Part shown: piece by piece, positions 6,565-55,578 of the stretch
Position numbering within the stretch: position 1 is the stretch's first letter
Layout of the letters: each line of letters opens with the position of its first letter
Source: Deltaproteobacteria bacterium HGW-Deltaproteobacteria-19
Lineage (GTDB): Bacteria > Desulfobacterota > Syntrophia > Syntrophales > PHBD01
Assembly: GCA_002841865.1 (NCBI GenBank)
Contig: PHBD01000001.1
Span: forward strand, 151,001-215,000
Reading direction: 5' to 3'
Length of the DNA: 64,000 bases
Made by a program: the position numbers and the translations under genes
Notes under the pieces: generated by a model
Seen by the model: only the letters and a program-made list of their open reading frames with translations
The model's database searches: none
Told to the model about the DNA's origin: nothing

Positions 6565-6611
6565 GATCTGTCTCCTCTCTGAGGGTTTTTGTTCTGTTTG
6601 ACTTTTAGTAT

Positions 6612-6627: not shown

Positions 6628-7110
6628 GGAGAGGGGACAATCCGCCGATGAAGTACAACCATATGATATGCAATAGAATAATGCGAAGGTGGGAAACTGT
6701 CGGAAAGATGAATAAGGCGTTCCGGTAGGGCTTCGGAGGATGTTTCGTTCAACCGACTTGAACGAAACAATCAGTGATCCCCCCTCCCGGACGGAAAGCC
6801 CGTCGGATGAGCATATGATCCGCTCTTCGATACTCCAAACTGGACTATTGTTTTCTTGTGGAGTAAAAAATGATGTACGATCAATCATAGAAATCCCGAC
6901 TCTCAAGGGGTGCAAGTGCCTGTGAAGGCCCCGTGGAAAGGGATGTCCGGCGATGGTTCCAAGTGTCCTTCGGGTGCAGGCTGAAACCGGTGCCAGAGGG
7001 CATGACACCATGCACAATGGCGAAATCATTGTCATCCGTTTGGATTCCCTTTTCTACAGTTCCTTGGATCAAAGACTCCGACAGTGGAAAGATGGAAAGA
7101 GGATCTCAAT

Positions 7111-9363: not shown

Positions 9364-9549
9364 TGGCCCAGGGGTTATGTTCCTCTCCTTTTCAGCGGGA
9401 TGGGCACTTGTGTTTTTGTCATTTTTTTTAATCGGCGGTGGCGTTGTTTTTCAATGCGGAACGAGGGACTGCAATCGAGGCCGGAAAGTTATTCCCAGGG
9501 TGGTGGGCGCAGGCCTTACCACATTTCTGTGCAGCTATGAGGAGGAAAA

Positions 9550-9708
9550 ATGGAGACGGCGGCTTTAGTTATAAGCCTTCTTTTCATGGTTCTTGCCATT
9601 GCCATTATCGTGGGCATTTCAAGGTGGGTATTCAGGATCAACGATATCATCGGCCGGATGGATAAAGTAATCGAATTGCTCGAAAGACAAATCCGCCTGC
9701 GGGAATAG
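9550..9708 (+). CDS. 52-aa single-pass membrane protein
   Basis: Not in the ORF track. GGAGG RBS at 9541; METAALVISLLFMVLAIAIIVGISRWVFRINDIIGRMDKVIELLERQIRLRE; TM helix followed by a short coiled-coil. Confidence 0.6.
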   Translation: METAALVISLLFMVLAIAIIVGISRWVFRINDIIGRMDKVIELLERQIRLRE

Positions 9709-9735
9709 GCCGAACAGACAAAGAAAGCGGGTCTG

Positions 9736-10545: not shown

Positions 10546-10575
10546 TGTTTTTTCTCCTGTCAGCAATGTTACAGC

Positions 10576-10604
10576 ATCATAAGAAAGACTTCTCAATTTG
10601 TCAA
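10576..10604 (-). promoter_or_regulatory. sigma70 promoter
   Basis: Minus strand TTGACA-N17-TATGAT, 30 nt upstream of ATG 10545. Confidence 0.75.
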
Positions 10605-10811
10605 AAGTAATCATGGTGTTCGGTCAACAGGAAAAGTGGTTCACCATGAGCATCGACAGGGGGGACGCTATCTTCATGATAGCTTTCTCTGTTATATCCA
10701 ATTATAAATGTATTGACATTTATGCAAAGTTTGACATAAGCACCTCTTACATCCGTTCTGGAAGGTCTTCCTTTTCCATTTATGTGTTCATAACCTCTGG
10801 AACGTGATTCA

Positions 10812-10856
10812 GAAAGCCCGGCCATGAAGGGAACATGGTCCGGGCTTTCGCTTTTT
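10812..10856 (+). terminator. Intrinsic terminator-like hairpin
   Basis: GAAAGCCCGG-CCATG...CATGG-T-CCGGGCTTTC followed by GCTTTTT. Confidence 0.6.
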
Positions 10857-11308
10857 CATGCGATCCTAATCTTTTAAAATACATGGAACGACGAAGTATT
10901 GTACTAACATCGCAAGAAACAATTATTGAACTGCATTTTCCGCGGCGGCAGGCATGACACGATCACAAAAACACCCTCCGGCTTCAATCATCCGCAAGGC
11001 AGTGAATATGCACGCGACTGCCGGAACAGGCAGCGCAATCGTCCCCGCTTCCTGACAGCCCGCTCCTGCTGGCTTCGTCTCTCACCATAGAATGCCTCGA
11101 CCCCGGAAACACCGCACTGCATCGGATTTCCTTATTTGAAGATACAAATTCCGGTGAAGAATCTGAAATTGTCCGAATGCCTTTCGGGAAGAATTGCCGA
11201 AAGATTTTTCAGACTGCATCGTATGGCTTCAATCCTTTTCTCCTGCCATCAATAATCCGGAGCATCAAGAGCATGAAGAAAACGGATGCCCGGAAAGAAG
11301 GTTGAAAC

Positions 11309-11722
11309 GTGGAGATCAGGTTTAAAATCTGGGTGGAAAATGACGGCGTCACCCTGTTTGGCCATGGAGTGGAAGAACTGCTGAAAGGCATCGATGAATG
11401 TAGAAGCCTCTTTGCCGCCGCCAAGAAGCTGAAAATGTCCTATCGGGCGGCCTGGGGAAAAATCAAAGACGCCGAAAAACGCACGGGGATGCAACTTGTC
11501 GTCACCAACGGCCGCAAGGGAATGCACCTGACAGAGAATGCGCAAAGAATCATTATGGAATTCGCAAAATTGGAAAACAACGTAAATGAATTACTTCATA
11601 ATTGCAGCAATTCATTGCCGATTCAGGATCGTGAGAGCCTGCAGAACACATCCGCGACTCGTCCCGCCCCCCAAACACTGGAGCATTCCCGCCTTCATAT
11701 GCCTCACAGGGCATATGCATAA
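11309..11722 (+). CDS. ModE-family winged-helix regulator (DNA-binding domain only)
   Basis: KIWVENDG..LFG.G...LL..IDE..SL..AAKKL.MSYRAAWGKIK.AE matches the ModE N-terminal wHTH; GTG start; no C-terminal Mop/TOBE domains. Confidence 0.85.
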   Translation: MEIRFKIWVENDGVTLFGHGVEELLKGIDECRSLFAAAKKLKMSYRAAWGKIKDAEKRTGMQLVVTNGRKGMHLTENAQRIIMEFAKLENNVNELLHNCSNSLPIQDRESLQNTSATRPAPQTLEHSRLHMPHRAYA

Positions 11723-11765
11723 AATTGCATAACCTACTGATATTATTATTTATTTCTGCTTGACA
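11714..11765 (+). promoter_or_regulatory. Inverted repeat TATGCA-N6-TGCATA and -35-like TTGACA upstream of the oxidoreductase operon
   Basis: Repeat at 11714-11731; TTGACA at 11760-11765; no good -10 hexamer found. Confidence 0.4.
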
Positions 11766-11942
11766 ATTTCTCCGTGAAGGCATACGCAACAGTCGTCCGG
11801 TTCACAGGAACTGAAACCGGATCTCAGGTGTCGCCCTCGCCGGGCGGCAGAAAGATTGGGCATCGACTTTATTGCGGAGCGGCCGGAGAGCAGCGGATCC
11901 GTCCCTATCCCCGGAACGCAAGATTGCAGAGGAGGTTACAGC

Positions 11943-14522: not shown

Positions 14523-14531
14523 GCGAGGTGA

Positions 14532-15245
14532 ATGACGATGAAAGAATATGCGATCCTGCTCGACAATACGTTCTGCACCGGCTGCAACAGTTGCGCATAC
14601 CGGTGTATCCAGGAGTTCCGATATCACGACCAGGCGTCGAAGGGTCTTTTCAGGACCTTCGTTTCGATCAACGACGGCGGTCTCTACCAGAAACGGTGCA
14701 TGCACTGTATCGACCCGCAGTGCGTCAAGAACTGTCCGGTCAAGGCCCTGACCAAGTCGGATTATGGACCGGTTCTCTACGATGCGAAGGTCTGCATCGG
14801 CTGCCAGACCTGCGTCCGGGTCTGCCCGTTCCATGTCCCGCTGTTCGATGAAATGACGAAGAAAATCGTCAAGTGCAGTCTCTGCGCCCAGCGGCTGGGC
14901 AGCGGGAAGCAGCCGGCCTGTGTTGAAGTCTGTCCGACCGGGGCGTTGCAGTTCGGCGAATACGGGGCGATGAAGACCCTGGCTTTGAAACGGGCCAAAG
15001 AAAAGAAACTCAAACTGTACGGCTACGACGAGAGCGGCGGGACTCATGTATTCGTCCTCGCCAAGGAAGATCCCGTGGCGGCCGGCTATCCGAAAGTACA
15101 GAAGAAGGCGCTGAAAGGCGGGAGGGCTTCCCTGGACGGAGGCCTCGGCGTGCCCGCCGTGGCGGTGCTGGCCGTGACCGGCATGAAAAAGTTCAGCGAG
15201 CGGCGCGCCCGCATCGAGGCGGAAACGAGAAAAGAAAAATCCTGA
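14532..15245 (+). CDS. 4x[4Fe-4S] electron-transfer subunit (FdnH/HybA/DmsB-like) with hydrophobic C-tail
   Basis: CTGCNSCAYRC, CMHCIDPQCVKNCP, CIGCQTCVRVCP, CSLC...PACVEVCP; C-terminal LGVPAVAVLAVTG followed by basic residues. Confidence 0.92.
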   Translation: MTMKEYAILLDNTFCTGCNSCAYRCIQEFRYHDQASKGLFRTFVSINDGGLYQKRCMHCIDPQCVKNCPVKALTKSDYGPVLYDAKVCIGCQTCVRVCPFHVPLFDEMTKKIVKCSLCAQRLGSGKQPACVEVCPTGALQFGEYGAMKTLALKRAKEKKLKLYGYDESGGTHVFVLAKEDPVAAGYPKVQKKALKGGRASLDGGLGVPAVAVLAVTGMKKFSERRARIEAETRKEKS

Positions 15246-31767: not shown

Positions 31768-31835
31768 GCGGAGATCCCATTTGAATCCGTATGAAATCAA
31801 ATCTCGATCATATACCAGAAGGAAGCGGACGACCC

Positions 31836-32663
31836 GTGAATACGAAGACTGTAACCATCGCCGTTCTTCTGCTTTCGATTGCAACCATTCTTCTCTGCGT
31901 GTTTTTCCTGCATCAAGGCTCCGGTCGTCTCGAAGCGGCTCCGTCAGGCAAGGTGTTCTGCGACCGGATGGTGTGGCAGGAGTTTGGGAAGAGGGGCTCC
32001 CAGATAACAATCTGGAAGCAGCGCGGGTATGATGTCTTCTTTTTCGAAACCGGCATGACTATTGACGCGGACGGATCTCCGCACGCATACCATCCGTCAA
32101 ACATAGGAATCGATGATAATGAAAACGGCAAGGACGAGCAGGGCAACTGGGTTGGGATCGTTCTGGCAAACAAGAAACCTTACATCCAGAATTCAACGGA
32201 TCCGGCCCCTGGGTACTACGTTTCCGCCACCAGCCTTTACGACATGACAAAGAGACGCACCGACCCGAGAAGATATGTTGATTCTGAGAAAATACCCTAT
32301 ATCGCGTTGCCTCGCCAGGTTATGCATCCGGACGGTCGCTGCCAGCGAGACGCCAAGGCCTGCCTGGGCGACATTACGATTGTCCGCAATATCGAGAACG
32401 GCCGGTATGCCTTCGCCATCCTTGCGGATCAGGCGCCATCCTCCGGTATCGGAGAAGGATCGATCGCCCTCGCCACGGCGCTCGGCATAGACCCCGATGC
32501 ACGCATCGGCGGAGCCAAAGAGGGAATCCAATACCTGATCTTTCCCGGAACAGGTGATGAAAAGCCCAAGTCAATCGAGCAGATCAACGACATGGGAAAG
32601 AAAATTCTGGAGCGATGGGGCGGCATGGGAAAACTGGATGCCTGTTTTGCCGATCAATCCTGA
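31836..32663 (+). CDS. Glycoside hydrolase family 75 (chitosanase-like) with N-terminal signal/anchor
   Basis: MTIDADGSPHAY, VDSEKIPYIALP, LGD...V, AILADQAP..GIGEGSIALA.ALGI, IQYLIFPG; hydrophobic N-terminus; GTG start 31836. Confidence 0.8.
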   Translation: MNTKTVTIAVLLLSIATILLCVFFLHQGSGRLEAAPSGKVFCDRMVWQEFGKRGSQITIWKQRGYDVFFFETGMTIDADGSPHAYHPSNIGIDDNENGKDEQGNWVGIVLANKKPYIQNSTDPAPGYYVSATSLYDMTKRRTDPRRYVDSEKIPYIALPRQVMHPDGRCQRDAKACLGDITIVRNIENGRYAFAILADQAPSSGIGEGSIALATALGIDPDARIGGAKEGIQYLIFPGTGDEKPKSIEQINDMGKKILERWGGMGKLDACFADQS

Positions 32664-32712
32664 CGATCTCTCATCCCCCCAGAAAGATCCCGCATAATCC
32701 CCATCCATTCCG

Positions 32713-35700
32713 TTACTTTATGCCCGTCAACACCTGCCGGAAGCTCTTTTTCAGGGCATCATACGCCGGCTTCATGTAGGGCCTCACCTGCATCTCATTC
32801 CAGTCCGTCCACGTGAACGCAGGCAATGTGGAGTCGATCCTGTTATTTCCGGAACGCGGAAGGCTTTCCTGGAAACGAAGCCCCGTCCCGGCAACGGACA
32901 GGTGCAGGGCAGCGATCCCGATACCGCCTCCCCGGGTGAAGACGGGTTCCGACTGACCGTCCGTCCCCCCATAGAAGAGGTGCGTGGAGGGGTCAGCCAC
33001 GTAGAGCATTCCCCAGGGAATCCGGACCTCGATCATTGTGCCCGTTGAGTCCACATGCCAGGCGGCCAGGGTCGAAGAGCCCGGTGCCGCGGGATCCGCC
33101 GTCCCTGCTGGCAATTCGCTCCGGTTGACGAAGACGGGTGGGAAGATACTTCCGTCTCTCCCCCAGCGCGGCGGGTTCGCCTGCGTCATCATCGATTCAA
33201 ATGAGGATCTATCCCGGACTCTCAGTTTGATGTCCTTCTTGCGTACAATGAGACGCCCCCCCGGCACGGAATCCTTTATCCAATGGTTGGGATTGAAGCC
33301 CTCAGCAATGAGCAGGGTGGCACGATCCGGGTGATCGAACTTCAGGAGAAATGTGGCCCCGTCCGCGATGCGGGGTGCCGGCTTCGGCAGTTCCCGGCTT
33401 CCCGCCCGGCCCGGCAGAGTGCTCAAGACCACCCAGAAGGCGTCCTTCTTCCAGTCGATCGCCGGGCTGTTTCTGTCCAGATCGATGCGGAGATAAAAAT
33501 AGGCGTAGTCCGACATGGCGCGGACTCCCCGAATCCGTCCCTCCCGGTTGGATGGTGCGGCCGAAATTGTGACCGCTTTTTCCCAGTCTTTTTCACTTCC
33601 CCTTAACAAAGGTACGGTATAAGCTGGACGATATCCAACAATGCCGAAGTTTTCTTCCGGATTGAGCATGTTCTGCCAGAACGTGCGCCGCTCCGGAGGC
33701 TGATCGAAAGGCCGTGTATAATTGTCGGCCACGGATTTCCACCATTCATCCAGCCAGGCAAAGACGATCCCGCCGGCACATCCCGAGTCCTTAATGTTTC
33801 GCGTCATGCGCTCCAGCAGGTCGGCCTGCGCTTTTTCGCTGAATCCGCCGTTGTGCCAGCCATCGGGATGAACATGGGCGACCCCCCAACTGCTCGGCAC
33901 GCCGTACTCTGCAATCAGGAGAGGCATGCCGCGATGGTGCTTTTTGAGGTCGAGGAGATATCCGTAATACCGGTTCGAACCGAGATCATCGCTGACTTTC
34001 GGATATTCCTTGTCGTACATGAGGAAGTCAGGCCAGTATGTGTAAACATGGAAGGCGGCGAATAGACCGGCGGGATAGGCCGACGTGGTGGTCAACTTCA
34101 TCACGTCCAGCGACACGGCATCGCTGTCATTCATTTCCTTGGTCGCCTTCTCTGTATGCATTCCGCGCATCGTCATTTCCTCGGCGTAGTTTGCCTCGGT
34201 GACATGGCTCATGGGATCCAGGGGGGGCCAGTTCACGATGGTCATCGGCCTCTGTGCATTGTACCGATCCATTTCGTAAGACGCGACATAATCGATCGTG
34301 TTGGCAAACCATACCTCGCTCGGATTTCCGTTTTTCACTTCGACATAGCGGCCTTTGTATGAGGTTTTGTCCGGATGAAGACGATTGGTCGTCAGGACGA
34401 TGGAGGTTTCCACTTCGCGTCCCGGACCGATGGCGAAGACATACGGGGAGACGTCTGCGGTGTAGACGCCAGCGGCATGGCCCGGGCGGTAAGGGATTAC
34501 CGCATTTCCGTGAAGCAGGTCGACGATGCGACGGGCCTCCTCAAGAAATTCTTCCCGCCATTGGCTGTTGTAAAGATCCAGCATATCTTCCTTTTCACTC
34601 AGCCAGACCTCCTGGAAGAGCCACAGTGGACGGGAAGCCTTTTCGTTGTAGATTTTCAGGGCCGTGTAAAAGGCCGGCGGCAGGATCGTGTAGGCCCGGA
34701 TCATGTTCGATTCCATCGCCGCTATCTGGTCAAACCAGGTTAAGTACGCGGCGACATCCCTGGGGGCCGTCGAGGGGTATTCACCGGGAGCGGCCGGACC
34801 GATGTTTACGCCCACCAGGTAGGCGCGCTGCCAGCCCTTCCCGTTGAAATACTCGAAGTAATCTCCTTTTGTGCGATAGAGAAACTGCATATTGGCGGGC
34901 CTTGCCCTTGTGAGTGGCGACGGTTTCTGCCACCACTGGACCTCGTCCGGCCGGACGCCATAGATTCTCGATAGTTGCAGCTTGGCCATATCGGCGCCGA
35001 TCCCTCTTTCAATCATCAGGCGATATACATCCGAGGCACCCGTTAGATTCCCAAGCCGGTAATGGCAATCTGCAAGGGATGACAGAACCGTCTCGTTCAT
35101 CTTACCGTCGAAAACGATCTTCTTGAGCAACGTCCGAGCCGCATCCCACTCCCCTTTCCGGTATGTGTCGATAGCGATTCGAATCGGATCTTCAGGCGGC
35201 CGTTCTTCGGTCAGTTCCAGGCGTCGCATGACGGCGAGGGCCAATTCATTGGCCTTATCCTTCTTCAAAACGGTTTCAGCCGCCTGTTTCGCCCCCGTTC
35301 TGTCACCGGTCTGCTCCAATGCCATGGCGAGGCCGGCGAAGCAGTCAAGATTCGTCCTGCCGTATTCCAGCCCGGTCCTGAAAGATTTTATCGCGTCTGC
35401 GGGAGTTCCGCGGCGGAGCTGCACATATCCGAGGCCGCAGTTTGCATCTGCCTGTTTCGCCTTGAGGCCAATGCTGCGCCGAAACGCCGTCTCCGCTGCA
35501 TCCGGTTCGTTCAAGCGCATGTAGGCCCATCCCTGGATTGCCGAAAGCCCGGCATCTTTCATGGCTTTGGGGGTCGACAGAAGAGTCACCGCCTGCTGGG
35601 GCTGTCCCTTCCTCATCAGGAGTAATGCTCGATCAGAAAGGCTTTCCGCAGAATACACGGAGGGTGTGAACACAAGGATCATGAGGACTGAAATCACGAC

Positions 35701-35730
35701 TAACGAGGCCAGACGCGGCAGTCTGTTCAT
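32713..35730 (-). CDS. Periplasmic TPR + putative glycoside hydrolase (clan GH-A-like TIM barrel) protein
   Basis: GGAG RBS at ATG 35730; signal peptide; several TPRs; GVNIG...G.YP, NMIRAYTILPPAFY.AL..YN, GREVE (acid/base-like), PLLIAEYGVPSS (nucleophile-like), GGIVFAWLDEWWK. Confidence 0.75.
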   Translation of the reverse strand: MNRLPRLASLVVISVLMILVFTPSVYSAESLSDRALLLMRKGQPQQAVTLLSTPKAMKDAGLSAIQGWAYMRLNEPDAAETAFRRSIGLKAKQADANCGLGYVQLRRGTPADAIKSFRTGLEYGRTNLDCFAGLAMALEQTGDRTGAKQAAETVLKKDKANELALAVMRRLELTEERPPEDPIRIAIDTYRKGEWDAARTLLKKIVFDGKMNETVLSSLADCHYRLGNLTGASDVYRLMIERGIGADMAKLQLSRIYGVRPDEVQWWQKPSPLTRARPANMQFLYRTKGDYFEYFNGKGWQRAYLVGVNIGPAAPGEYPSTAPRDVAAYLTWFDQIAAMESNMIRAYTILPPAFYTALKIYNEKASRPLWLFQEVWLSEKEDMLDLYNSQWREEFLEEARRIVDLLHGNAVIPYRPGHAAGVYTADVSPYVFAIGPGREVETSIVLTTNRLHPDKTSYKGRYVEVKNGNPSEVWFANTIDYVASYEMDRYNAQRPMTIVNWPPLDPMSHVTEANYAEEMTMRGMHTEKATKEMNDSDAVSLDVMKLTTTSAYPAGLFAAFHVYTYWPDFLMYDKEYPKVSDDLGSNRYYGYLLDLKKHHRGMPLLIAEYGVPSSWGVAHVHPDGWHNGGFSEKAQADLLERMTRNIKDSGCAGGIVFAWLDEWWKSVADNYTRPFDQPPERRTFWQNMLNPEENFGIVGYRPAYTVPLLRGSEKDWEKAVTISAAPSNREGRIRGVRAMSDYAYFYLRIDLDRNSPAIDWKKDAFWVVLSTLPGRAGSRELPKPAPRIADGATFLLKFDHPDRATLLIAEGFNPNHWIKDSVPGGRLIVRKKDIKLRVRDRSSFESMMTQANPPRWGRDGSIFPPVFVNRSELPAGTADPAAPGSSTLAAWHVDSTGTMIEVRIPWGMLYVADPSTHLFYGGTDGQSEPVFTRGGGIGIAALHLSVAGTGLRFQESLPRSGNNRIDSTLPAFTWTDWNEMQVRPYMKPAYDALKKSFRQVLTGIK

Positions 35731-35762
35731 TATTATCTCCAATATCTTTGATTTCATTATAT

Positions 35763-36683
35763 TTACTTGCGGGTGGGATAGTGGTTGATGACGGCATTCC
35801 CGGCCGGAGCAGATCCAGCCATCGGGGACACGTCCGTAAGATTTCTCGTGAGAAGCTGTCCGAACTGCTCTACGGAGAACTGTCCATAAACCGGGTACCT
35901 GCGGATTTTCATGGGACTCATGCCGGGCATGTTCAGTCCCTGATCCGTGGTCACCGTCGTAATGTATCCAGAATCTCTGGCGATGGCCAGTAATTCGTCA
36001 TTATACCAGCCGCTTGGCCAGGAATAATGAACAACCGGGCGTTGGAGTTTTTCTTCCATTACCTTTTTCGCCCCTGCAATTTCGGCCACGACATCCTTCC
36101 GTGAGCGATTCGGAGTCTTCCCCGCGAGCCACGAAATGAGATGATTCCCCGGAATCCATGGGTGTGTGCTTGAATGGCATCCGAAATCAAAGTCCTGGTG
36201 GGATGCAATCTCTGCCAGCTCGGGCCAGGTCAGGAAAGCCGGATAGGAACCGTCGATGTACTCCAGCACGATGAAGAAGGTCGCTTTAAACTTGTATTTT
36301 TTCAGAATCGGTACAGCGTTCTGAACGCTCTTCCATCCGTCATCAAATGTGAGAACGACCGATTTTTCGGGTAGCGATATTCTTCTTTCCATATATGCTT
36401 TAAGATCGTACAGGTCGACGGTCGTATAACCGTTATCCTTTAAGTATTTCATCTGCTCTTCAAAACGGGCGAGATGAGTCAGCGTATGGTCCGGTGTTTC
36501 CGTCGGGTTGTTGGAAATCTTGTGATACATGAGGACAGAGACATTGGCGGGCGTTATGGTCTGGCCGGCTGGAAGATCCTTATCTGCGCACCACCCTTGA
36601 GATATGAAAAGAAAAAGGAAGGCTACAGAATAAATGAAACCACCCCTCTTTTTCCAGTTGCAATCTTTCAAATTTTTGTTCAT
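35763..36683 (-). CDS. Secreted polysaccharide deacetylase (CE4, IcaB/PgaB-like NodB domain)
   Basis: Signal peptide; VLMYHKI, VVLTFDDG, GCHSSTH, YSWPSG motifs. Confidence 0.92.
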   Translation of the reverse strand: MNKNLKDCNWKKRGGFIYSVAFLFLFISQGWCADKDLPAGQTITPANVSVLMYHKISNNPTETPDHTLTHLARFEEQMKYLKDNGYTTVDLYDLKAYMERRISLPEKSVVLTFDDGWKSVQNAVPILKKYKFKATFFIVLEYIDGSYPAFLTWPELAEIASHQDFDFGCHSSTHPWIPGNHLISWLAGKTPNRSRKDVVAEIAGAKKVMEEKLQRPVVHYSWPSGWYNDELLAIARDSGYITTVTTDQGLNMPGMSPMKIRRYPVYGQFSVEQFGQLLTRNLTDVSPMAGSAPAGNAVINHYPTRK

Positions 36684-37176
36684 ATTTAGGCCCCATTCTA
36701 TTATGTTTTTTATCTGCGAACAGAAAACACTTCATTAGGATGTGTTTACCATCCGGGGGTCGTTTTGTCGAGATGAATTGTTTGCAGTGGCCGCAAGGGT
36801 AAATCAAACACATCCGAAATTGACTAGATGTCGTCTCAGCCGACAGGTTGAGTTTTGTTCGCCTGGATCGACAGGAACGGATCGAAATTCTCTTACCAAC
36901 GGCAAGATTCGAAAGAGATCGGATCGATATTTTTTTGCCGGGCATTCCAGCCTGGGCTTCAGAAGCGTGTTCAAGCCCGACGATGTTCTTTCAGGAATGA
37001 AATACCGGATCGTGCAACACTTGGCTTGTAAGAACTGCGAAATTTTTCTGTAAGCTCTTGCGGTGGCGTAACGATTAGATCCTACAACGTTATTTCTTTA
37101 TGCGGTGTGCTGGTTTAGAGGGCAAATATGCGGCGGATTGTTTCTGGAGGACACCAACGAATTATTTAAAAATAGT

Positions 37177-37205
37177 TAGACAAAAGAATCAAAGAGTTGT
37201 ATAGA
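37177..37205 (+). promoter_or_regulatory. Candidate sigma70 promoter for the HEAT-GT2-TPR operon
   Basis: TAGACA-N17-TATAGA, 35 nt upstream of ATG 37240. Confidence 0.55.
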
Positions 37206-37239
37206 ACGCAGTCAAAATCGAAGAGAGGCGGAAGATGAT

Positions 37240-38505
37240 ATGAGTGATTTGCGGTTGATCCTGATCGTCTCTATTTTGTTAGTGTTTTCTTTCGTTCTTG
37301 GCTTTATTCTTGCTTCAGTTTTCCGAAGATACAGGAACGAACGACGTTATTCTCAAATCGACCAACTCAGGGATCGGTTTCGTTCCAAATTGGCGCAAAT
37401 CGACTCAATCACGGCGATAGACCGATTCTCCGTGAGTCAGTGGCAGTCAGCAGTTCGCAAAGGTTCTGTTGAATGGGTCGCTCTTGAAGATGTCATCTTC
37501 GAATTCGCCGAGCGAAAGGGTCAAAAGGCCTTTGCTAGACGTCTTTTTGCCGCGCTCGGTTATACAAAGCATTATCAGGGTCAGTTGTCTCTCCGTTCCG
37601 CCATTGATTTATCGGTAGCGGCCGATAAACTGGGACGGATAGGAGATCCCTCCTCCATGGAAGCCCTGAGCAAACTTCTGGATCATCCCAAATCTGAAGT
37701 ATCCACGGTTGCCTTCCGGGCTCTCTGTCGCATCGGGAAAAGAGATTCCCTCCACCGATTGCTGAATGCGCTCCCAAGATTGATGAAAAATGAGAACATA
37801 TCATCAAAAACGATCCAGACATCCCTTCTCCTCTTTGAACCTTGGGCCAGTGCAACCATCATAGAGTATGCGGGCAAAACAGCGGACCCTAAGATTCTCG
37901 CCCTGCTTGTCGAGACGCTGATCGGTTTTCCTGCACACAAAGAAATGTTCGATCTGGCTATCACCTTGGTTTCTCACTCGGATCCTGAAGTTCGGGGGAA
38001 AGCCCTCCGTCTCCTGGCCCGCGAAGATAATGTATCTTTTTCCTGCGACCCGGCCATCCTTCAGCCCCTTCTCTCGGATCCGGTGTGGTTTGTCCGTCTT
38101 CAGGCTGCAAAGACAATCGGCAGGATAAAGTGTGATAATTTCATGGCAATGCTGAAAAAATTCGCACTTGACGAGAAATGGCAGGTGCGTGATTCCGCAG
38201 CCTTCGCCCTCTCCGAACTTGGCGAGTCTTCCATTGATACCTTCCTCGAACTCATGGAGACACCGGACAAATATGCAAAGGAAAGCATCTGCGAAGAAAT
38301 TCAGCGAAGCGGGTATGTGCTTGGACTCATCGATTATCTTGGAGATCGTGAAAGCGATAGAAAAACAAAGGCTAAACGGATTCTCCAATTGATGCATCAA
38401 CTTGGTTTTTCGGCGCCGCTTCGCGATGCCGTGGAAGCCAATACCAGTTCTCCCCAAGTTCGCTCTGAAATCCAAAGTATCCTGAATGCTGGCGGTGCCC
38501 AATGA
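37240..38505 (+). CDS. HEAT-repeat protein with N-terminal transmembrane helix
   Basis: TM segment LILIVSILLVFSFVLGFILASVF; repeats such as AADKLGRIG, LLDHP..EV...AFRAL, DPEVRGKALRLL, DPVWFVRLQAAKTIG, DEKWQVRDSAAFAL; ATGA overlap with GT2. Confidence 0.88.
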   Translation: MSDLRLILIVSILLVFSFVLGFILASVFRRYRNERRYSQIDQLRDRFRSKLAQIDSITAIDRFSVSQWQSAVRKGSVEWVALEDVIFEFAERKGQKAFARRLFAALGYTKHYQGQLSLRSAIDLSVAADKLGRIGDPSSMEALSKLLDHPKSEVSTVAFRALCRIGKRDSLHRLLNALPRLMKNENISSKTIQTSLLLFEPWASATIIEYAGKTADPKILALLVETLIGFPAHKEMFDLAITLVSHSDPEVRGKALRLLAREDNVSFSCDPAILQPLLSDPVWFVRLQAAKTIGRIKCDNFMAMLKKFALDEKWQVRDSAAFALSELGESSIDTFLELMETPDKYAKESICEEIQRSGYVLGLIDYLGDRESDRKTKAKRILQLMHQLGFSAPLRDAVEANTSSPQVRSEIQSILNAGGAQ

Positions 38506-39932
38506 AAGCGATCCTTTATTCCATCGTTATCGGCTTCAACTACTTCGTCGGTTTCTACTTCGGGTTGGTCAACGCAGTTTATTCCATCCTCCTGGCCATA
38601 GCCCTGGTTGTTATCCTCCGGCATGTCCGCCGAATCCGTTATGCTCCCTTCCGGGATCTCGAAAATCGCTCGGAGATGCCTCCTGTCGCGATTCTGATCC
38701 CTGCCAGAAACGAGCGCAACGTGATTATCCGCACAGTCGAGTCCGTTCGGGCACTCATTTATCCCTGGACGGAAATAGTCGTTATCAACGACGGGTCCAC
38801 GGATGATATGCTGCAAACTCTGATCTCTCACTATAATCTGCGCAGGATTGACCCTCTATACAGGGACATCATCAAGACCAGACCGGTCAAAGGGTTTTAT
38901 TATACCAGCCAGATTCCGAACCTGATCGTCATCGACAAGGAGAATGGAGGCAAGTCGGATGCCCTCAATTGCGGAATCAACGTCTGCAAGAGTCCGTACA
39001 TCTGTACTCTTGATGCAGACTCCGTTTTTGAGCCGGAATCGCTGATTCGACTGGTTACACCGCTTATTCAGAGTACGGTTCCTGTCATCGCCTCCGGCGG
39101 CGTTGTCCGCGTGCTCAACGGTGTAAAGCGTGAAAAAGGGGTTGTAAAATCGATTGAACTTCCTCGATCAAGCTCCCTCGCAATTTTTCAGATTGTCGAA
39201 TATTTGCGAAGTTTCCTCTTCGGCCGGGTCGGCCTGGATGCTTTGAACTGCAATCTGATCCTGTCGGGTGCTTTTTCGCTGTTTCAAAAGGCTGCGGTCA
39301 TCACGGTCGGCGGTTTTCGACTGGGAAACGTGACAGAGGATATGGAATTGGTCATCCGCCTCCACAAGCATTACAGTCTCAAAGGAGATCCCTACGTTAT
39401 CCGCTTCGTTTCCGATCCAATCTGCTGGACGGAGGTTCCCGAAACCCTGAAAATGCTTGGCCGTCAGCGACGTAGATGGCATCTGGGAATGATTCAGAGC
39501 ATCTGGGAACACAAGACGACGATTTTCAACCCAAGATACGGCAGGCTTGGAATGTTCGCGATGCCCTACAATGTTTTTATTGAAATGGTCAGTCCCATCA
39601 TCGAGTTCCTGGGATACATCATTGTCATCATGTCATATATCCTTGGCATGATCGATTATGATTTCTTTATGCTGTTCCTGTTTCTGGCTATCGGTTACGG
39701 GATTTTTCTGTCCACGACCGGCATTTTTCTCGAAGAGCTGACATACCGCCGCTATCCTAAATGGAGTGACCTCTTTGTCATGCTTGCCTACGGGGCATTG
39801 GAGAATTTCGGTTATCGACAGATCAATTCATTCTGGCGATTCTCAGCCTTCTTCCAATTTATCTTTGGCCGGGGTAAATGGGAAACTGTGCGGCATAAAG
39901 GAGAAAAGAAACCTGCCTCAGCGGCGGCTTGA
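38502..39932 (+). CDS. Processive GT2 polysaccharide synthase (PgaC/IcaA-like)
   Basis: N-terminal TM; IPARNE, VINDGSTD, NGGKSDALN, DADS, VTEDMEL, QRRRW (D,D,D,QxxRW); C-terminal TM helices. Confidence 0.92.
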   Translation: MKAILYSIVIGFNYFVGFYFGLVNAVYSILLAIALVVILRHVRRIRYAPFRDLENRSEMPPVAILIPARNERNVIIRTVESVRALIYPWTEIVVINDGSTDDMLQTLISHYNLRRIDPLYRDIIKTRPVKGFYYTSQIPNLIVIDKENGGKSDALNCGINVCKSPYICTLDADSVFEPESLIRLVTPLIQSTVPVIASGGVVRVLNGVKREKGVVKSIELPRSSSLAIFQIVEYLRSFLFGRVGLDALNCNLILSGAFSLFQKAAVITVGGFRLGNVTEDMELVIRLHKHYSLKGDPYVIRFVSDPICWTEVPETLKMLGRQRRRWHLGMIQSIWEHKTTIFNPRYGRLGMFAMPYNVFIEMVSPIIEFLGYIIVIMSYILGMIDYDFFMLFLFLAIGYGIFLSTTGIFLEELTYRRYPKWSDLFVMLAYGALENFGYRQINSFWRFSAFFQFIFGRGKWETVRHKGEKKPASAAA

Positions 39933-40002
39933 TTGCTGAACTGCACAATGGGACAGATCTGTATTTATCATTATTTTAAATAATTTTTTTAAGGAGAAGC
40001 GA

Positions 40003-42177
40003 ATGAAGAAAGTTTCTTTGTTTCTGCTTGTGAGTTTTCTCTGTTGTGTAACAATTGCCTTTGCGGCCGATGCAATCGATGATTTCAATAAACGCCTTGC
40101 CGCCGCGAAAGACAATGTGGAAAAGGCAACTGTACTAAAAGAGATGGGAGATTATTACACAGCAGAGGGGCAACACGAAAAGGCCGCGGACACTTATCTC
40201 AAGGCGTTGCCTGAACTTCGGGACAGGCTGCCGGAAGATCAGTTGACGGATGTGGCAATCGGTCTTTCCTGGGGGGGGAAACTGGAGGCATCTTCCACGG
40301 AATTGCGATCCATCCTGAAGCGAAATCCAAAAAACACAAAAGCGAGAGCACACCTCGCGAAAGTCCTCCTCTGGTCTGAAAAACCGGATGAAGCTCTGGC
40401 AGAAGCCAATGCCGCGCTTGCCATACAAGCCAATGATCGGGATGCTATTCTGGTAAAGGCAGAAGTCCTTCGGATCAAGGACGAGTTGGACGCCGCAATC
40501 TCTATTTATAACGAGCTTCTGAAAGGTGGTGAAGATTTCGACACAAGTCTTGGGCTGGCTTGGGCTTACTTTCAGAAGGGTGATGTTTCCGCATCGCAAA
40601 AAACGATTCCGACTGCAAAGCCTGTCTATCCCTACCAGGAACAGGAACTCAAGAATCTGAACGGTGAAATTCAAAAAGTTCTCGATTCCAGACAGGCGGC
40701 CGTCGCTGCCGTTGGTCCCGAGGCTGATAAGTTGAAGACGGAAGGGGATGTGCTCTCAGAAGCCGAGAAGTACCCGGCCGCCGCGGAGAAATACGTTAAG
40801 GCGCTGGATCTCTCCCGTGGTTTCCCGGTTGCATCCCGCGTGGAGATGGCGACAGTCATGGCCTGGGCTGGAATGCACAAGAGATCCGCCAAGGAATTGG
40901 AAGACGTCATCGCCAAAGATCCATCAAATATGGAAGCGCGTGTCCAATTAACCCAGGTGCTTCTCTGGCAGGGCGAGTTTGATGCGTCCATTCGGCAGGC
41001 CGACATCGTTCTGGCCAAAGATCCAAACAACCGTGAAGCCAACCTTTCGAAGGCGAACGCTCTCCGTTCAAAGGGTTTTTTCCGCAAGGCAGACCAGTAT
41101 TACAAAGCCCTTCTTGCAAAATCGGACGACTTTGATGTTCGCACCGGCCAGACATACGGCTTCCTGGCAAGTGGAAACAAGACCGCTACCGATGATAGCC
41201 TGGCACGCATAAAACCACGAAACAGTGCAGAGGAAAAAGAGCTTTCCGATCTCCGTGCCGAGCGCTTCTGGGAGATGCGTCCCAGGCTCTATGCGGGCAC
41301 CAACTTCTATTATGACAACGACGACAACCGAGTAACGACCCTTTACGGTGGAACCCAGTTCTGGCTCGGCAATTTCAAGACAAACATCGATTACTCCCGA
41401 CTGAGACTGCAAGGGGAAGGTACGGGATTCGACGATAATGGCAATGCAATTGCTCTCGCTACCGGCAAAGAGACCGATTTTGTCCAGCTCTCGACCTATT
41501 CCAGGATGCCTTGGTATGGCGGACTCGGTGGTGGAGTAGGGCTTTCGGACGGCAAGTTCTTCACCTGGCACGGGAAAGCCGATGTGGAAGTGCTTTGGGG
41601 ATCCGCCGGCGTCTATGTTGCAAATGAAACCTTCAACTACCTTACAGACCTCGTCGACAACAACATCAGGGCCATGACCTATCAGGCATGGCTCAACCAG
41701 CGCCCCACAGACCGCATCACCATACTGGGCAGTTTCACTCATCGCGAATATTCGGACAGCAATGGTCAGAATGACACACAGGCGAGCATTGCCTACCTGC
41801 TTTTGAGAAGGCCGTCCGTTTCCGTTGGTTACCAATTCCGCCACATGGATTTCCGCCGTCAGAGCGGAGGCGGCTACTTTGATCCTGATGATTACCAGGC
41901 ACATTCCATCTTTGTGGGTTTCGGCTATTACGAACTGCCGTTTTACATGAACGTCACACCATATGCCGGTTACCAGGATTTCAGTCGCAATGATGAGCAC
42001 TTCAGCGGCATTTTCGGAGGTGTTACCGGCCTTGTTGGATATCGATTCGGTAACCGGGTGGCTGTTGAAGCGACCGGTGAGTGGGGCAATTCGCCCGCCG
42101 GTGGCGGGTCGTCGGCCGGAGCCGGAACCGGGTGGTATTACTGGGTCGGAGGCTTGAGGGTCATCTTTGTTCTCTAG
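40003..42177 (+). CDS. TPR-containing outer-membrane beta-barrel, putative polysaccharide export protein (PgaA/BcsC-like architecture)
   Basis: Signal peptide; about 400 aa of TPRs; C-terminal about 300 aa of alternating aromatic/Gly beta-strands ending WYYWVGGLRVIFVL. Confidence 0.8.
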   Translation: MKKVSLFLLVSFLCCVTIAFAADAIDDFNKRLAAAKDNVEKATVLKEMGDYYTAEGQHEKAADTYLKALPELRDRLPEDQLTDVAIGLSWGGKLEASSTELRSILKRNPKNTKARAHLAKVLLWSEKPDEALAEANAALAIQANDRDAILVKAEVLRIKDELDAAISIYNELLKGGEDFDTSLGLAWAYFQKGDVSASQKTIPTAKPVYPYQEQELKNLNGEIQKVLDSRQAAVAAVGPEADKLKTEGDVLSEAEKYPAAAEKYVKALDLSRGFPVASRVEMATVMAWAGMHKRSAKELEDVIAKDPSNMEARVQLTQVLLWQGEFDASIRQADIVLAKDPNNREANLSKANALRSKGFFRKADQYYKALLAKSDDFDVRTGQTYGFLASGNKTATDDSLARIKPRNSAEEKELSDLRAERFWEMRPRLYAGTNFYYDNDDNRVTTLYGGTQFWLGNFKTNIDYSRLRLQGEGTGFDDNGNAIALATGKETDFVQLSTYSRMPWYGGLGGGVGLSDGKFFTWHGKADVEVLWGSAGVYVANETFNYLTDLVDNNIRAMTYQAWLNQRPTDRITILGSFTHREYSDSNGQNDTQASIAYLLLRRPSVSVGYQFRHMDFRRQSGGGYFDPDDYQAHSIFVGFGYYELPFYMNVTPYAGYQDFSRNDEHFSGIFGGVTGLVGYRFGNRVAVEATGEWGNSPAGGGSSAGAGTGWYYWVGGLRVIFVL

Positions 42178-42237: not shown

Positions 42238-43254
42238 ATGACTGGAACTCAGGAACACAGATCAAAGGTCGAAATCTGGAGCCCTGCTCTGCATGATGTT
42301 CTGGAGCTTCTAAAAAACCCCTTTCATCCCGGTGACCGCATCGGCGTCAAGCTTCACTGGGGTGAAAGGGGTAACCGCAGTTTCCTCCCCCCCGATTATG
42401 CGAAAGCCATCATCGACTGGATCCTGAAAAAAGGCGGACATCCCTTTGTTTTTGATACAACAGTTCTTTATTCTGGAAGCCGCCGAAATGGAAAGGATTC
42501 GCTAACAACGGCCTCCCGTCACGGCTATTCTGAAGAATTCCTGGGCTGCCCCGTCCTGATCGCGGACGGTCTCGACGGCCGGGACACCGTTTCCATCCCT
42601 TCCAATTACCGTCACTTCGAAACGGTTCAGGTGGCGAATGTCTTCACACGAGCCGATGGTTTCGTAATTTTTTCCCATTTCAAGGGTCATCTGGCGTCCG
42701 GATTCGGAGGCGCTATCAAGAACCTCTCCATGGGCTTCGCCTCTCGAGCCCAGAAGCAGCGGATGCATGCCGACGTGTCCCCCACATTGGAGGAGTCGCG
42801 CTGCACCAAATGCGGTGTTTGCACTGCAATATGCCCTGTCGGCGCCGCCTGCATGGAAGAAGGGGAGTTTCCAACCTACGATCTCGAAACCTGCATCGGC
42901 TGCGCACAATGCATCGGCGCCTGCCCTGAAGTGGCCCTCCGGATCCTCTGGGATACGGATGAAACGGTCTTTCAGGAAAAACTCGTGGAAACTGCGGCGG
43001 CCGTCTGGCGGATGATTGAAGGCCGGACAATCCTGATCAATGCGCTTCTCAATATTACTGTGGACTGCGACTGCCTTCCCGGAAAGAACCCCTCGATCGC
43101 ATCAGACGCAGGATTCATCACTGGAATCCATCCAGTCGCAATCGACGAGGAGTCGCTCCGGATCATCGGGCCGGAACCTTTCGACAGGGCACATCCCGGA
43201 ACCCCCTGGCGGCGTCAGTTTTCCTATGCCCGGGAAATCGGATTTGCCCAATGA
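42238..43254 (+). CDS. DUF362 domain protein with 2x[4Fe-4S]
   Basis: IGVKLHWGE, SHFKGH...GFGGAIKNLSMG, CTKCGVCTAICP, CIGCAQCIGACP, DCDC. Confidence 0.9.
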   Translation: MTGTQEHRSKVEIWSPALHDVLELLKNPFHPGDRIGVKLHWGERGNRSFLPPDYAKAIIDWILKKGGHPFVFDTTVLYSGSRRNGKDSLTTASRHGYSEEFLGCPVLIADGLDGRDTVSIPSNYRHFETVQVANVFTRADGFVIFSHFKGHLASGFGGAIKNLSMGFASRAQKQRMHADVSPTLEESRCTKCGVCTAICPVGAACMEEGEFPTYDLETCIGCAQCIGACPEVALRILWDTDETVFQEKLVETAAAVWRMIEGRTILINALLNITVDCDCLPGKNPSIASDAGFITGIHPVAIDEESLRIIGPEPFDRAHPGTPWRRQFSYAREIGFAQ

Positions 43255-43273
43255 AGGAGACTTTAACCCATTC

Positions 43274-43855
43274 ATGAAGCAGAAGGAACGGATCCATTCG
43301 AGAAATATCGCCATCGACTGTTACGAGACGCCGGACGGTAAGCTTTTTGTGGAGGCATCCCTCGCGGACGAGAGGTATGTCCCTTTTTTTCTCTACACCG
43401 CCAACCGGGTTCACGATCCCGGGATCATTCACGGCATGACGGCACGGATGACCTTGAGTGTTCCGGATTTGACGATCCTCGATGCCGAGGCGGATATGCC
43501 AACCGTTCCCATCGAAGAATGTACCGAGGCCCGGGATTCTATCCGTCGGCTCGTAGGAATGCGGATACGGGCCGGTTTCACCAATGAAGTGAAACAAATG
43601 CTGGGCAAGAGAGCAGGCTGTCAACACCTGACAAACCTGATCATGACAATGAGCTCTGGTGCCGTACAGGGGCTTTGGACCATCATGAGCCGTCTGCGCG
43701 ATGAAGGATCCGGTCTGAAACAGCATCTGGATCCCGAGCTTCTTCTTGATAGTTGCTGGTTGTGGAGGAGCGATGGCCCTCTCGCAGAGCGGCTCCGTCA
43801 GGCAAGGGAACAGTCAGAGGGAAGGGCGGAAGCGACTTCCCAAAAACCTCTATGA
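43274..43855 (+). CDS. DUF2889 domain protein
   Basis: IHSRNI.I..Y, IHGM, P..EC, L.GM.I..GF, GCQHLTNL, LLDSC; AAGGAG RBS before ATG 43274. Confidence 0.85.
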   Translation: MKQKERIHSRNIAIDCYETPDGKLFVEASLADERYVPFFLYTANRVHDPGIIHGMTARMTLSVPDLTILDAEADMPTVPIEECTEARDSIRRLVGMRIRAGFTNEVKQMLGKRAGCQHLTNLIMTMSSGAVQGLWTIMSRLRDEGSGLKQHLDPELLLDSCWLWRSDGPLAERLRQAREQSEGRAEATSQKPL

Positions 43856-54109: not shown

Positions 54110-55578
54110 AGAATCATTCCAACGGACTGCAGAACATCCGGGAAGAAGCACAGGACGGCCACCGGTTTTATCAGACTCGCTCCTCGCATTGGGACAGTGT
54201 TGCTCAAACTGGCAATCCTCCGGGGCATGGCTGGGGAGGCGCTTATCGCTCCCGTCTTTCCGAGGTCTATCGCTTCCTGATTCCGCCCGGTTCCAAGGTT
54301 CTGGAACTGGGATGCGGCCAGGGAGACCTGCTCGCTTCCGTCCGTCCCGCCCGGGGGGTAGGGGTTGATTTCTCCGCTGCCATGCTTGAACGGGGGAGAC
54401 AGCGCCACCCGGAAATCCATTTTGTCTGCGAGGACATCCACAGTCTGAAGCTGGACGAGACTTTTGATTTCATCATTATTTCCGATCTCCTGAACGATCT
54501 CTGGGATGTCCAACAGGTATTTGAAGTCGTCCGGCCGAACTGTCACTCCCGAACGCGGGTCGTGATCAACCTGTACAGCCACCTTTGGGAGAAACCGTTG
54601 GAATTTGTCCAGAAATGGGGGTTGGCCACTCCCACTCTCCCGCAGAACTGGCTGACCGTCGAGGACGTGGCTAATCTGCTCTATCTGACTGATTTCGAGA
54701 TGATCCGCTCCTGGCCTGAAATTCTCTGGCCCTTTCGCATTCCCCTGTTCTCGTCGCTTCTCAACCGCTATGCGGTGAGGTTCTGGCCTTTCCGCTGGTT
54801 CGCCCTGACAAATTTTCTCATTGCACGGCCATGCTCCAATGACGCAGCACCGGATCCTGCTCCCCTTGTGTCGGTTATCGTCCCGGCACGGAACGAGGCG
54901 GGCAATGTCCCGCGCATCTTTTCCCGTACACCGGAAATGGGCCGGGGAATCGAGTTGGTCTTCGTCGAGGGACATTCCCGGGATGGAACTTACGAGGCAA
55001 TCGAGAAGGCCATTGCCGAAAACCCGCATCGTCGCTGCCAGCTCCATCGCCAGACGGGGGCCGGAAAGGGTGATGCCGTCCGTCTCGGTTTTTCCAAGGC
55101 GACGGGAGATGTCCTGATGATCCTGGATGCAGACCTCACGGTGCCCCCGGAAGACCTGCCCCGCTTTCTCGCAGCCCTCACATCGGGCAAGGCGGAATTT
55201 GTCAACGGGGTTCGTCTTGTCTATCCCATGGAAAACAGGGCGATGCGCTTTTTCAATCTCCTGGGAAACAAGTTTTTCAGCCTGACCTTTTCCTGGCTCC
55301 TTGGACAGTCGATCAAAGACACTCTCTGTGGAACCAAGGTCCTGAAAAGGGAAGAGTACGGACGAATTGAACAGAACCGATCCTATTTCGGAGACTTTGA
55401 CCCCTTCGGCGATTTTGACCTGATTTTCGGTGCTGCAAAGCTGAACCTGAAGATCGTCGATCTGCCGGTGAGATACCGGGAGCGGACTTACGGCACCACC
55501 CAGATCCAGCGCTGGAGTCATGGCTGGCTTCTGCTCAAAATGGTTGCGTTCGCCGCCCGGAGAATCAAATTCATCTAA
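54106..55578 (+). CDS. Fusion of class I SAM methyltransferase and GT2 (polyprenol-P glycosyltransferase-like)
   Basis: VLELGCGQG, GVGVDFS in the N-half; VIVPARNEAGN, VEGHSRDGT, GKGDAV, ILDADL, DTLCGTK in the C-half. Confidence 0.9.
   Translation: MKNHSNGLQNIREEAQDGHRFYQTRSSHWDSVAQTGNPPGHGWGGAYRSRLSEVYRFLIPPGSKVLELGCGQGDLLASVRPARGVGVDFSAAMLERGRQRHPEIHFVCEDIHSLKLDETFDFIIISDLLNDLWDVQQVFEVVRPNCHSRTRVVINLYSHLWEKPLEFVQKWGLATPTLPQNWLTVEDVANLLYLTDFEMIRSWPEILWPFRIPLFSSLLNRYAVRFWPFRWFALTNFLIARPCSNDAAPDPAPLVSVIVPARNEAGNVPRIFSRTPEMGRGIELVFVEGHSRDGTYEAIEKAIAENPHRRCQLHRQTGAGKGDAVRLGFSKATGDVLMILDADLTVPPEDLPRFLAALTSGKAEFVNGVRLVYPMENRAMRFFNLLGNKFFSLTFSWLLGQSIKDTLCGTKVLKREEYGRIEQNRSYFGDFDPFGDFDLIFGAAKLNLKIVDLPVRYRERTYGTTQIQRWSHGWLLLKMVAFAARRIKFI

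Follow-up and report, generated by a model that had tools for sequence, protein, structure and literature searches.

What kind of polysaccharide machine is encoded by a divergent six-gene locus of HGW-Deltaproteobacteria-19, a member of the Syntrophales, and which polymer does it make? The locus lies in contig PHBD01000001.1, within the 64,000-nucleotide stretch from 151,001 to 215,000 that we call the window and whose numbering is used below. It consists of genes for a membrane-anchored HEAT-repeat protein, a processive glycosyltransferase of family GT2, an export porin with tetratricopeptide repeats (TPR), a polysaccharide deacetylase of family CE4, a TPR-tethered glycoside hydrolase (hereafter the hydrolase) and a GH75 chitosanase homologue. 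Characterised synthase-dependent exopolysaccharide systems are few, namely those for cellulose, poly-N-acetylglucosamine (PNAG), alginate, Pel and lately Nfr, and they underpin most mechanistic thinking on biofilm matrices. We conclude, with a probability of about 0.6, that the locus is a complete synthase-dependent exopolysaccharide machine of an undescribed type, with a polymer of N-acetyl-hexosamine (HexNAc) as its likely product. Such a machine would follow the same logic as the known systems with non-homologous accessory parts, that is, a co-subunit with HEAT repeats, a hydrolase from a family that Pfam does not model, and arms that can be swapped.

The six open reading frames (ORFs) were confirmed across positions 31791-42177, with the identities that an initial annotation of the window had given them, and Pfam matches, motifs and structural models all bear out this architecture. 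The features are as follows, with lengths in amino acids (aa) or base pairs (bp).

31791-32663, plus strand: predicted GH75 chitosanase homologue (290 aa; hydrophobic N-terminus at residues 21-39, an anchor or signal)
32713-35757, minus strand: TPR-tethered glycoside hydrolase, predicted periplasmic (1014 aa; signal peptide)
33610-34884, minus strand: catalytic barrel of the hydrolase (residues ~292-716)
35763-36683, minus strand: secreted polysaccharide deacetylase of family CE4 (306 aa; opens the leftward operon)
36684-37239, no strand: divergent intergenic region between the arms (556 bp; presumably holding both promoters)
37240-38505, plus strand: transmembrane-anchored HEAT-repeat protein (421 aa)
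38502-39932, plus strand: processive membrane GT2 synthase (476 aa; D, DxD, TED and QRRRW)
40003-42177, plus strand: outer-membrane export protein with TPR and beta-barrel (724 aa; signal peptide)

The rightward arm thus carries HEAT, GT2 and porin genes, and the leftward arm CE4 and then hydrolase genes, 5 bp apart; the GH75 gene converges on the hydrolase gene across a 49-bp spacer. The locus had been placed at 31836-42177. Unrelated housekeeping genes lie on both sides (Fe-S protein, thioesterase, DUF362, DUF2889, VanZ, cytidylate kinase), so these boundaries hold, except that the start moves to 31791, where the longest GH75 ORF begins.

Parts of the machine

The GT2 protein carries the motifs NDGS96, DAD171, TED278 and QRRRW322, with two N-terminal and three to four C-terminal hydrophobic helices, and is predicted to be an inner-membrane processive synthase that would also translocate its product. 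Against the curated NCBIfam models it scored 112.6 bits for PgaC_IcaA (TIGR03937, cut-off 422.3), 49 for CelA (TIGR03030, cut-off 699) and 21 for NodC, and it is 25% identical to E. coli PgaC over 336 aa. After the DxD region it has xSGxF as in PgaC/IcaA, not the FFCGS of BcsA, and the comparison of motifs (xSGxF, TED, QxxRW) indeed makes it kin to PgaC/IcaA-type enzymes, while the donor sugar is not assignable from these motifs. A GT2 phylogeny against PgaC/IcaA, NodC and BcsA had been proposed as a check; in the resulting tree, all 18 HEAT-associated GT2s fall outside a PgaC+IcaA clade with 100/100 support and stand apart from it, as well as from NodC, NfrB and BcsA, in an unresolved deep order. 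The NodC used here came from pSymA, on which tblastn and the length of the ORF identified it. Over 6600 GT2 homologues were found, all labelled just 'glycosyltransferase', and the genome held no further PgaC/IcaA-equivalog candidate elsewhere. Two other frames came to light as well: a separate GT2-type frame at ~54847-55146 of the window (~507 aa), outside this locus, with a weak N-terminal PgaC_IcaA match, and an 1116-aa 'glycosyltransferase' flanked by insertion sequences on a B. mycoides plasmid (L066 3766-7116), whose C-terminal GT2 is 26% identical to that of the window and which has 690 N-terminal aa besides.

The HEAT protein (HEAT_2, E=9e-22 in Pfam) has a single N-terminal transmembrane helix at residues 6-24, followed by RRYRNERR, and because the helix precedes this Arg-rich stretch the HEAT repeats are expected to face the cytoplasm. 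Its stop codon overlaps the GT2 start (ATGA), and its gene is the most constant companion of GT2 across the loci described below. We infer that it is a regulatory or scaffolding subunit, and its position and topology suggest that it fills the niche of PgaD, IcaD, PelE or PilZ.

Both enzymes of the leftward arm carry signal peptides and are conserved alongside GT2. The CE4 protein matched PF01522 at E=2.8e-24 and contains all three CE4 motifs (TFDD112, HSSTH170 and WPSG222), which is consistent with the removal of acetyl groups, N- or O-specificity aside. Its best NCBIfam model is the PgaB N-terminal domain (TIGR03938), at 99 bits against a cut-off of 322, and IcaB scored 45 against 248; identity to residues 74-278 of E. 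coli PgaB is 25%.

The hydrolase is laid out as a signal peptide, TPR at ~40-260, a (beta/alpha)8 barrel at ~292-716 and a C-terminal beta-sandwich at ~717-1014. In the whole protein Pfam recognised just the TPR, and Pfam and NCBIfam searches of its C-terminal 723 aa gave no usable family, only GH113 at E=0.023. We therefore describe it from structure: an AlphaFold2 model of residues 285-1014 (predicted local distance difference test score, pLDDT, 81; predicted template-modelling score, pTM, 0.86) is a clan GH-A TIM barrel with a beta-sandwich, and Foldseek placed the GH157 enzyme LaGH157 (9g5g) first (E=2e-11, probability 1.0), with further matches to GH2 glucuronidases and to GH5 enzymes including clostridial CcsZ, all at 10-16% identity. 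This model and that of the porin were built from shallow alignments of 9-15 sequences. A profile made from 15 homologues of related loci was swamped by TPR matches when searched untrimmed against PDB; trimmed to the barrel instead, it found LaGH157 at E=1.8e-4 by sequence alone, with ~12% identity. The invariant E617 (LLIAEYG), which aligns with the residue changed in the LaGH157 E224A entry, is the predicted nucleophile. The predicted acid/base, E448 (GPGREVE), is at least 90% conserved and follows predicted strand 4 in a G-R-E rather than an N-E context. R354, E448, D514, H518, H570, Y572, E617 and D670-E671-W672 are invariant or nearly so, and among them R354, H570-x-Y572, E617 and W672 sit at clan GH-A signature positions. 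Taken together, the fold, the LaGH157 profile match and the catalytic and signature residues suggest that the domain is an active beta-glycanase of the retaining type, in a family for which Pfam has no model; ~12% identity is too low for assignment to GH157. A scan of 1.84 billion representatives returned 1335 clusters (at 50% identity) for this family at E<=1e-3 and 505 at E<=1e-30. No similarity to PgaB was detected, its GH153 domain included.

The AlphaFold2 model of the porin (pLDDT 86.7) consists of a TPR solenoid at ~22-425 and a 16-strand beta-barrel at 428-723, and its best Foldseek matches were E. coli BcsC structures (9b8a at E=7e-12, and 6tzk). By sequence the match to PgaA (TIGR03939) was weak, at 40 bits against a cut-off of 367, and BLASTP of the window porin against PgaA was not significant. 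The barrel had no Pfam match, and a paralogue matched PgaA_barrel weakly (E=0.0023).

We then compared these parts with the characterised systems. A processive transmembrane synthase, a TPR and beta-barrel porin, a periplasmic modifier and a polymer-cleaving enzyme place the locus in the general synthase-dependent class. Like Pga/Ica, it has a GT2 of TM-GT-TM layout (transmembrane segments around the GT domain) with D/DxD/TED/QxxRW, a CE4 and a glycoside hydrolase, a TPR and 16-strand porin, and an inner-membrane synthase partner. However, its GT2 lies outside the PgaC+IcaA clade and no curated Pga model reached its cut-off; the partner is the 421-aa HEAT protein, with no PgaD/IcaD-like ORF among the genes or next to them; the hydrolase belongs to clan GH-A and has its own TPR, whereas that of PgaB is GH153; and CE4 and hydrolase are separate genes, and where they are fused in a relative (P0154, see below) they stand in the opposite order. 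The likeness to Bcs lies in the porin model and in a synthase accompanied by an endoglycanase, CcsZ (GH5, clan GH-A) being among the fold matches of the hydrolase. In contrast to Bcs, the locus has no PilZ or BcsB-like ORF, and it has a CE4, xSGxF in place of FFCGS, and a CelA score of 49 bits against 699. NfrAB, the c-di-GMP (cyclic di-GMP)-activated poly-N-acetylmannosamine synthase of E. coli, shares the pairing of a GT2 with a TPR/beta-barrel outer-membrane protein, and some HEAT-GT2 relatives use YaiO-type barrels; however, NfrB aligns at E=1e-4 (BLASTP) over the GT region only, the window GT2 ends after its transmembrane bundle without MshEN, and the Nfr locus lacks a HEAT partner, CE4 or hydrolase. 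As regards GH157 and clan GH-A in general, the (beta/alpha)8 fold and the LLIAEYG glutamate aligned with E224 link the window hydrolase to LaGH157, and the R, H-x-Y, E and W signature positions link it to the clan, while it adds a ~300-aa beta-sandwich and N-terminal TPR, and its genomic role would be polymer processing rather than nutrient acquisition. The earlier claim of a synthase-dependent system that matches no classical parts list has thus been upheld: the curated models for Pga, Ica, Bcs, Nod and Nfr all scored below their cut-offs. Furthermore, full-text literature searches turned up no characterised HEAT-GT2 system, and an operon survey reports just unassigned divergent pga-like arrangements in environmental bacteria (PMC7112194).

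Conservation, fusions and the exchangeable arm

A GT2 scan over one genome per species gave 35 loci, onto which the six window proteins were mapped. HEAT was found directly 5' of GT2 in seven bacterial phyla and one haloarchaeon, the pair being accompanied usually by the hydrolase and in many cases by CE4 and a porin. The colinear order HEAT-GT2-hydrolase-CE4-porin occurs in Syntrophorhabdus, in two Thermodesulfobacteriota metagenome-assembled genomes (MAGs) and in another member of the Syntrophaceae. In Thermodesulfovibrio sp. N1, GT2-hydrolase-CE4-porin are colinear on a contig that begins at GT2, the HEAT position lying beyond it. Two Nitrospirota-lineage MAGs have HEAT-GT2-hydrolase-porin without CE4. 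GT2 with the hydrolase, mostly with a recognisable HEAT, occurs in Clostridium (two hydrolase copies), Bacteroidales (YaiO-type TPR barrel) and Gemmatimonadota, and HEAT-GT2 alone in Thermoanaerobacteraceae, Solirubrobacteraceae, Gammaproteobacteria, Erythrobacter aureus and the haloarchaeon Halosolutus gelatinilyticus. The carriers are commonly uncultured anaerobes (Nitrospirota, Thermodesulfobacteriota, Omnitrophota, Syntrophales), and also include Clostridium and Thermoanaerobacteraceae MAGs, Bacteroidales, Gemmatimonadota and Actinomycetota. Erythrobacter aureus YH-07 and Halosolutus gelatinilyticus are cultured, and Thermodesulfovibrio sp. N1 may be a third cultured carrier; such strains would make experiments possible.

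Fused genes connect the same parts. The hydrolase is joined to CE4 in P0154 (L067 6235-9537), beside a GT2 and a TPR protein, and GT2 is joined to the hydrolase in P0182 (L068 5760-9476), which is preceded by histidine kinase, response regulator and HEAT genes. In P0144, P0161 and P0168 the TPR-hydrolase is followed by a second TPR block and ~350 C-terminal residues that match nothing in Pfam and resemble a porin in length only. These hydrolase+CE4, GT2+hydrolase and hydrolase+TPR fusions indicate that the parts belong to one machine.

Within the order, the cassette is confined to the window's genus, where five of seven genomes carry it, against none of the 34 others. The G+C content falls to 0.47-0.49 at positions 36001-40000, against ~0.55 around, over a span that takes in the 5' end of CE4, the intergenic region, HEAT and GT2. 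The low G+C and the restricted occurrence together suggest that the cassette was acquired horizontally in this genus.

The genus also shows that one arm can be exchanged. In the congener G002 (L042, G002:C1:186000-205000, 5672-15085), HEAT, GT2 and porin are 88%, 92% and 58% identical to those of the window, whereas CE4 is 29% identical and the hydrolase 28%, the latter being 74% identical to that of another Syntrophaceae genus; this accessory arm lies on the same strand as HEAT-GT2-porin. Since the arm differs while HEAT, GT2 and porin are kept, the hydrolase/CE4 pair forms a swappable module, and the third hydrolase of these loci (GH75 in the window, GH16 in G002) is a lineage-specific addition.

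The GH75 gene

The GH75 protein is a predicted chitosanase homologue. It scored 32.7 bits on PF07335 in Pfam (cut-off 27), and phmmer aligned it over its full length with the solved viral chitosanase V-Csn (7TVM, E=2.7e-36). Its DADG92 and AD213-x8-E222 correspond to D34, D36, D148 and E157 of V-Csn, so that all four acidic residues reported to be universally conserved in GH75 (PMC9485262) are kept. It resembles the viral, fungal and Streptomyces GH75 chitosanases in these respects, and differs from them in its membrane anchor or signal and in adjoining an exopolysaccharide locus in a strictly anaerobic syntroph lineage.

The initial annotation had taken GH75 as a hint of a beta-1,4, chitosan-like linkage. 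A survey of gene neighbourhoods, named beforehand as the check, divided the two hydrolases: the TPR-hydrolase recurs beside GT2 across phyla, whereas GH75 adjoins the cassette in this Syntrophaceae lineage only (L001, L002, G001, G004, G005 and the distant metagenomic contig L060). Four of the seven genus genomes have it, as against none of 34 others in the order. None of the 33 loci beyond the lineage contains it, nor does the congener G002, which carries GH16 instead. Since the GH75 and GH16 additions imply different linkages, GH75 is unusable for calling the polymer beta-1,4 chitosan, and that argument is weakened. GH75 is a lineage-specific accessory gene, and it may process beta-1,4-glucosamine stretches of the product.

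Is GH75 a working member of the machine at all? At a little under even odds, it could instead be a neighbour that was gained with or near the swapped arm and acts on exogenous chitosan or on the polymer of another organism. Its position at the locus edge, convergent and with its own upstream region, would suit this, as does its absence from the loci outside the lineage and from G002. Five GH75 homologues inspected in other organisms all lie in unrelated neighbourhoods, one of them beside the catabolic genes GH20 and HGSNAT. On the other hand, the adjacency of GH75 and hydrolase genes is kept in L060, where the proteins are 62% and 72% identical to those of the window, and GH75 tracks the window-type arm exactly, all four genus genomes with this arm having it. 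A polymer-specific extra hydrolase beside a synthase operon also has a precedent in the GH20 gene near icaA on an S. hominis plasmid (L065 212-3666), where this gene of the dispersin-like family lies immediately 5' of icaADB.

The polymer and the regulation of its synthesis

As for the sugar, PgaC_IcaA outscores every other curated model for GT2 by a wide margin, archaeal-type GlmU and GlmS genes lie directly 3' of the Halosolutus HEAT-GT2 pair, and genes for a TviB-like UDP-GlcNAc (GlcNAc, N-acetylglucosamine) 6-dehydrogenase and a TviC-like epimerase flank the presumed pair of a gammaproteobacterial relative, L027. No polysaccharide acetyltransferase was found in any cassette locus surveyed, and with CE4 present and an acetyltransferase absent, the simplest source of the acetyl groups is the sugar itself. 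The polymer therefore probably contains HexNAc, most likely GlcNAc, and the chain would become partly cationic. A partly de-N-acetylated GlcNAc polymer had been proposed from the outset; CE4 without an acetyltransferase, the proximity of PgaC/IcaA and the GlmS/GlmU and TviB/TviC contexts lend moderate support to HexNAc and deacetylation, whereas the beta-1,4 linkage that came with it was not upheld as put forward. Within the HexNAc reading, a beta-1,4 chitin/chitosan-like polymer is rather unlikely in our estimate. The further idea that a cationic matrix would suit the aggregation of this syntroph with partner cells is speculative. In the L027 branch, the gene contents suggest an N-acetyl-hexosaminuronic acid polymer; the gene order there (4843-12147) is TviB-like, short-chain dehydrogenase/reductase, YaiO/TPR porin, a 350-aa ORF in the HEAT position, GT2 and TviC-like.

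Several findings weigh against a HexNAc machine of this kind. Of the 15 distinct related cassettes with the hydrolase (the window lineage counted once), 6 lack CE4. The deep branches of the GT2 tree are unresolved, with support of 42/9, so that kinship with PgaC/IcaA is not phylogenetically secured, and we found no member of the GT2 clade with a known product. No c-di-GMP receptor motif (PilZ, GGDEF I-site, MshEN) or riboswitch was found at this locus. GH157, the nearest characterised relative of the hydrolase, is an endo-beta-1,3-glucanase family, and a GalU gene adjoins a Steroidobacteraceae relative. In G002, the CE4 and HEAT genes have between them, on their own strand, a gene for a GH16 laminarinase lipoprotein; it matches solved laminarinases at E=1e-64 and has a lipobox and an intact EIDIME motif. 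The GH157-like hydrolase and this GH16 together hint at a glucan. The same GH16 scores 61.5 bits on the SKN1/KRE6 model, and SKN1/KRE6 proteins are linked to yeast beta-1,6-glucan synthesis.

The product could thus be a neutral beta-glucan, beta-1,3 or mixed-linkage and curdlan- or laminarin-like, for which the GH157-like hydrolase and GH16 would be the cognate glucanases, CE4 would be an O-deacetylase or act elsewhere, and GH75 would be unrelated. The hydrolase finds both its first fold match and its sole profile-level sequence match in GH157, and this speaks for a glucan, as do the G002 laminarinase inside a cluster with a 92% identical GT2, the GalU neighbour and the several cassettes without CE4. 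However, we consider it unlikely: the hydrolase is just ~12% identical to GH157, and clan GH-A substrates vary widely between families. Furthermore, CE4 forms one protein with the hydrolase in P0154 and is its neighbour in most of the close cassettes, and no locus has a polysaccharide acetyltransferase; GT2 scores far lower on the BcsA/CelA and other glucan-synthase models than on PgaC_IcaA, and its xSGxF is that of PgaC/IcaA; and the GlmS/GlmU and TviB/TviC contexts point to HexNAc instead. A Romboutsia mixed-linkage glucan synthase, considered as a relative, was rejected as BcsA-like with a PilZ domain.

Finally, a very divergent Pga/Ica-type system that makes beta-1,6 PNAG, with PgaB split into CE4 and a non-homologous hydrolase and with HEAT replacing PgaD, would account for the Pga-like functional parts list and for PgaC_IcaA, the PgaB N-terminal domain and PgaA being the best or among the best curated matches of GT2, CE4 and porin, but is quite unlikely, given that all three scores fall far under the equivalog cut-offs (112.6 versus 422, 99 versus 322 and 40 versus 367), that the PgaC+IcaA clade excludes every HEAT-associated GT2, that the hydrolase has no similarity to the GH153 domain of PgaB, that no dispersin-type GH20 is found at the locus, and that to our knowledge no characterised GH75 or GH16 enzyme cleaves a beta-1,6 linkage, the SKN1/KRE6 score of the G002 GH16 notwithstanding.

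For the HexNAc machine we propose the following mechanism. The inverting GT2 would use a UDP-sugar donor to polymerise a beta-linked glycan and would thread the chain across the inner membrane. Its obligate partner would be the single-pass protein with the cytoplasmic HEAT solenoid, which would take the place of PgaD, IcaD, the PilZ domain of BcsA, PelD/E or Alg44. In the periplasm, CE4 would strip some of the acetyl groups and the TPR-tethered clan GH-A retaining glycanase would trim or clear the chain, which the BcsC/PgaA-like porin, with TPR and 16 strands, would then export.

Regulation was considered from the neighbourhoods of relatives. Response_reg is the commonest Pfam family there (10 of 108 neighbouring ORFs), and a single-domain response regulator gene lies just 5' of HEAT in three unrelated loci, those of Halosolutus, Erythrobacter and L068. 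Two GGDEF genes flank the Thermoanaerobacteraceae HEAT-GT2 pair. In relatives, HEAT may thus link the synthase with single-domain response regulators or with signalling by c-di-GMP. The loci concerned are L056 7393-13442 (Halosolutus plasmid), L055 6343-10236 (Erythrobacter plasmid) and L068 3038-9476, and the Erythrobacter HEAT-GT2 pair is embedded in a flagellar gene cluster that also contains PilZ and PAS genes. In the window, an Rfam search gave no family within the locus, which argues against a c-di-GMP riboswitch there, and promoter and terminator scans of the locus gave signals not above chance.

In its widest form, which we hold to be improbable as a whole, the proposal would make HEAT-GT2 a sixth and very broad synthase-dependent system, spanning bacteria and haloarchaea, with its own CAZy-level hydrolase family, a HEAT link to CheY-like regulators rather than or besides c-di-GMP, and, in this syntroph lineage, a beta-1,4 chitin/chitosan-like, partly de-N-acetylated polymer processed by GH75. 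We know of no chitin/chitosan-like polymer from a synthase-dependent bacterial pathway, and such a product, if true, would be a class new to these pathways. The identity of the polymer would show what binds many anaerobic granules and flocs, and a new CAZy family and a new mode of synthase regulation could follow.

Downstream of the porin gene, the pair of DUF362/4Fe-4S and DUF2889 ORFs (window 42238-43855) is kept in L001, L002 and G002. The two ORFs overlap by ~215 bp as listed, and since the pair is both conserved and overlapping, the second gene probably starts further downstream than listed.

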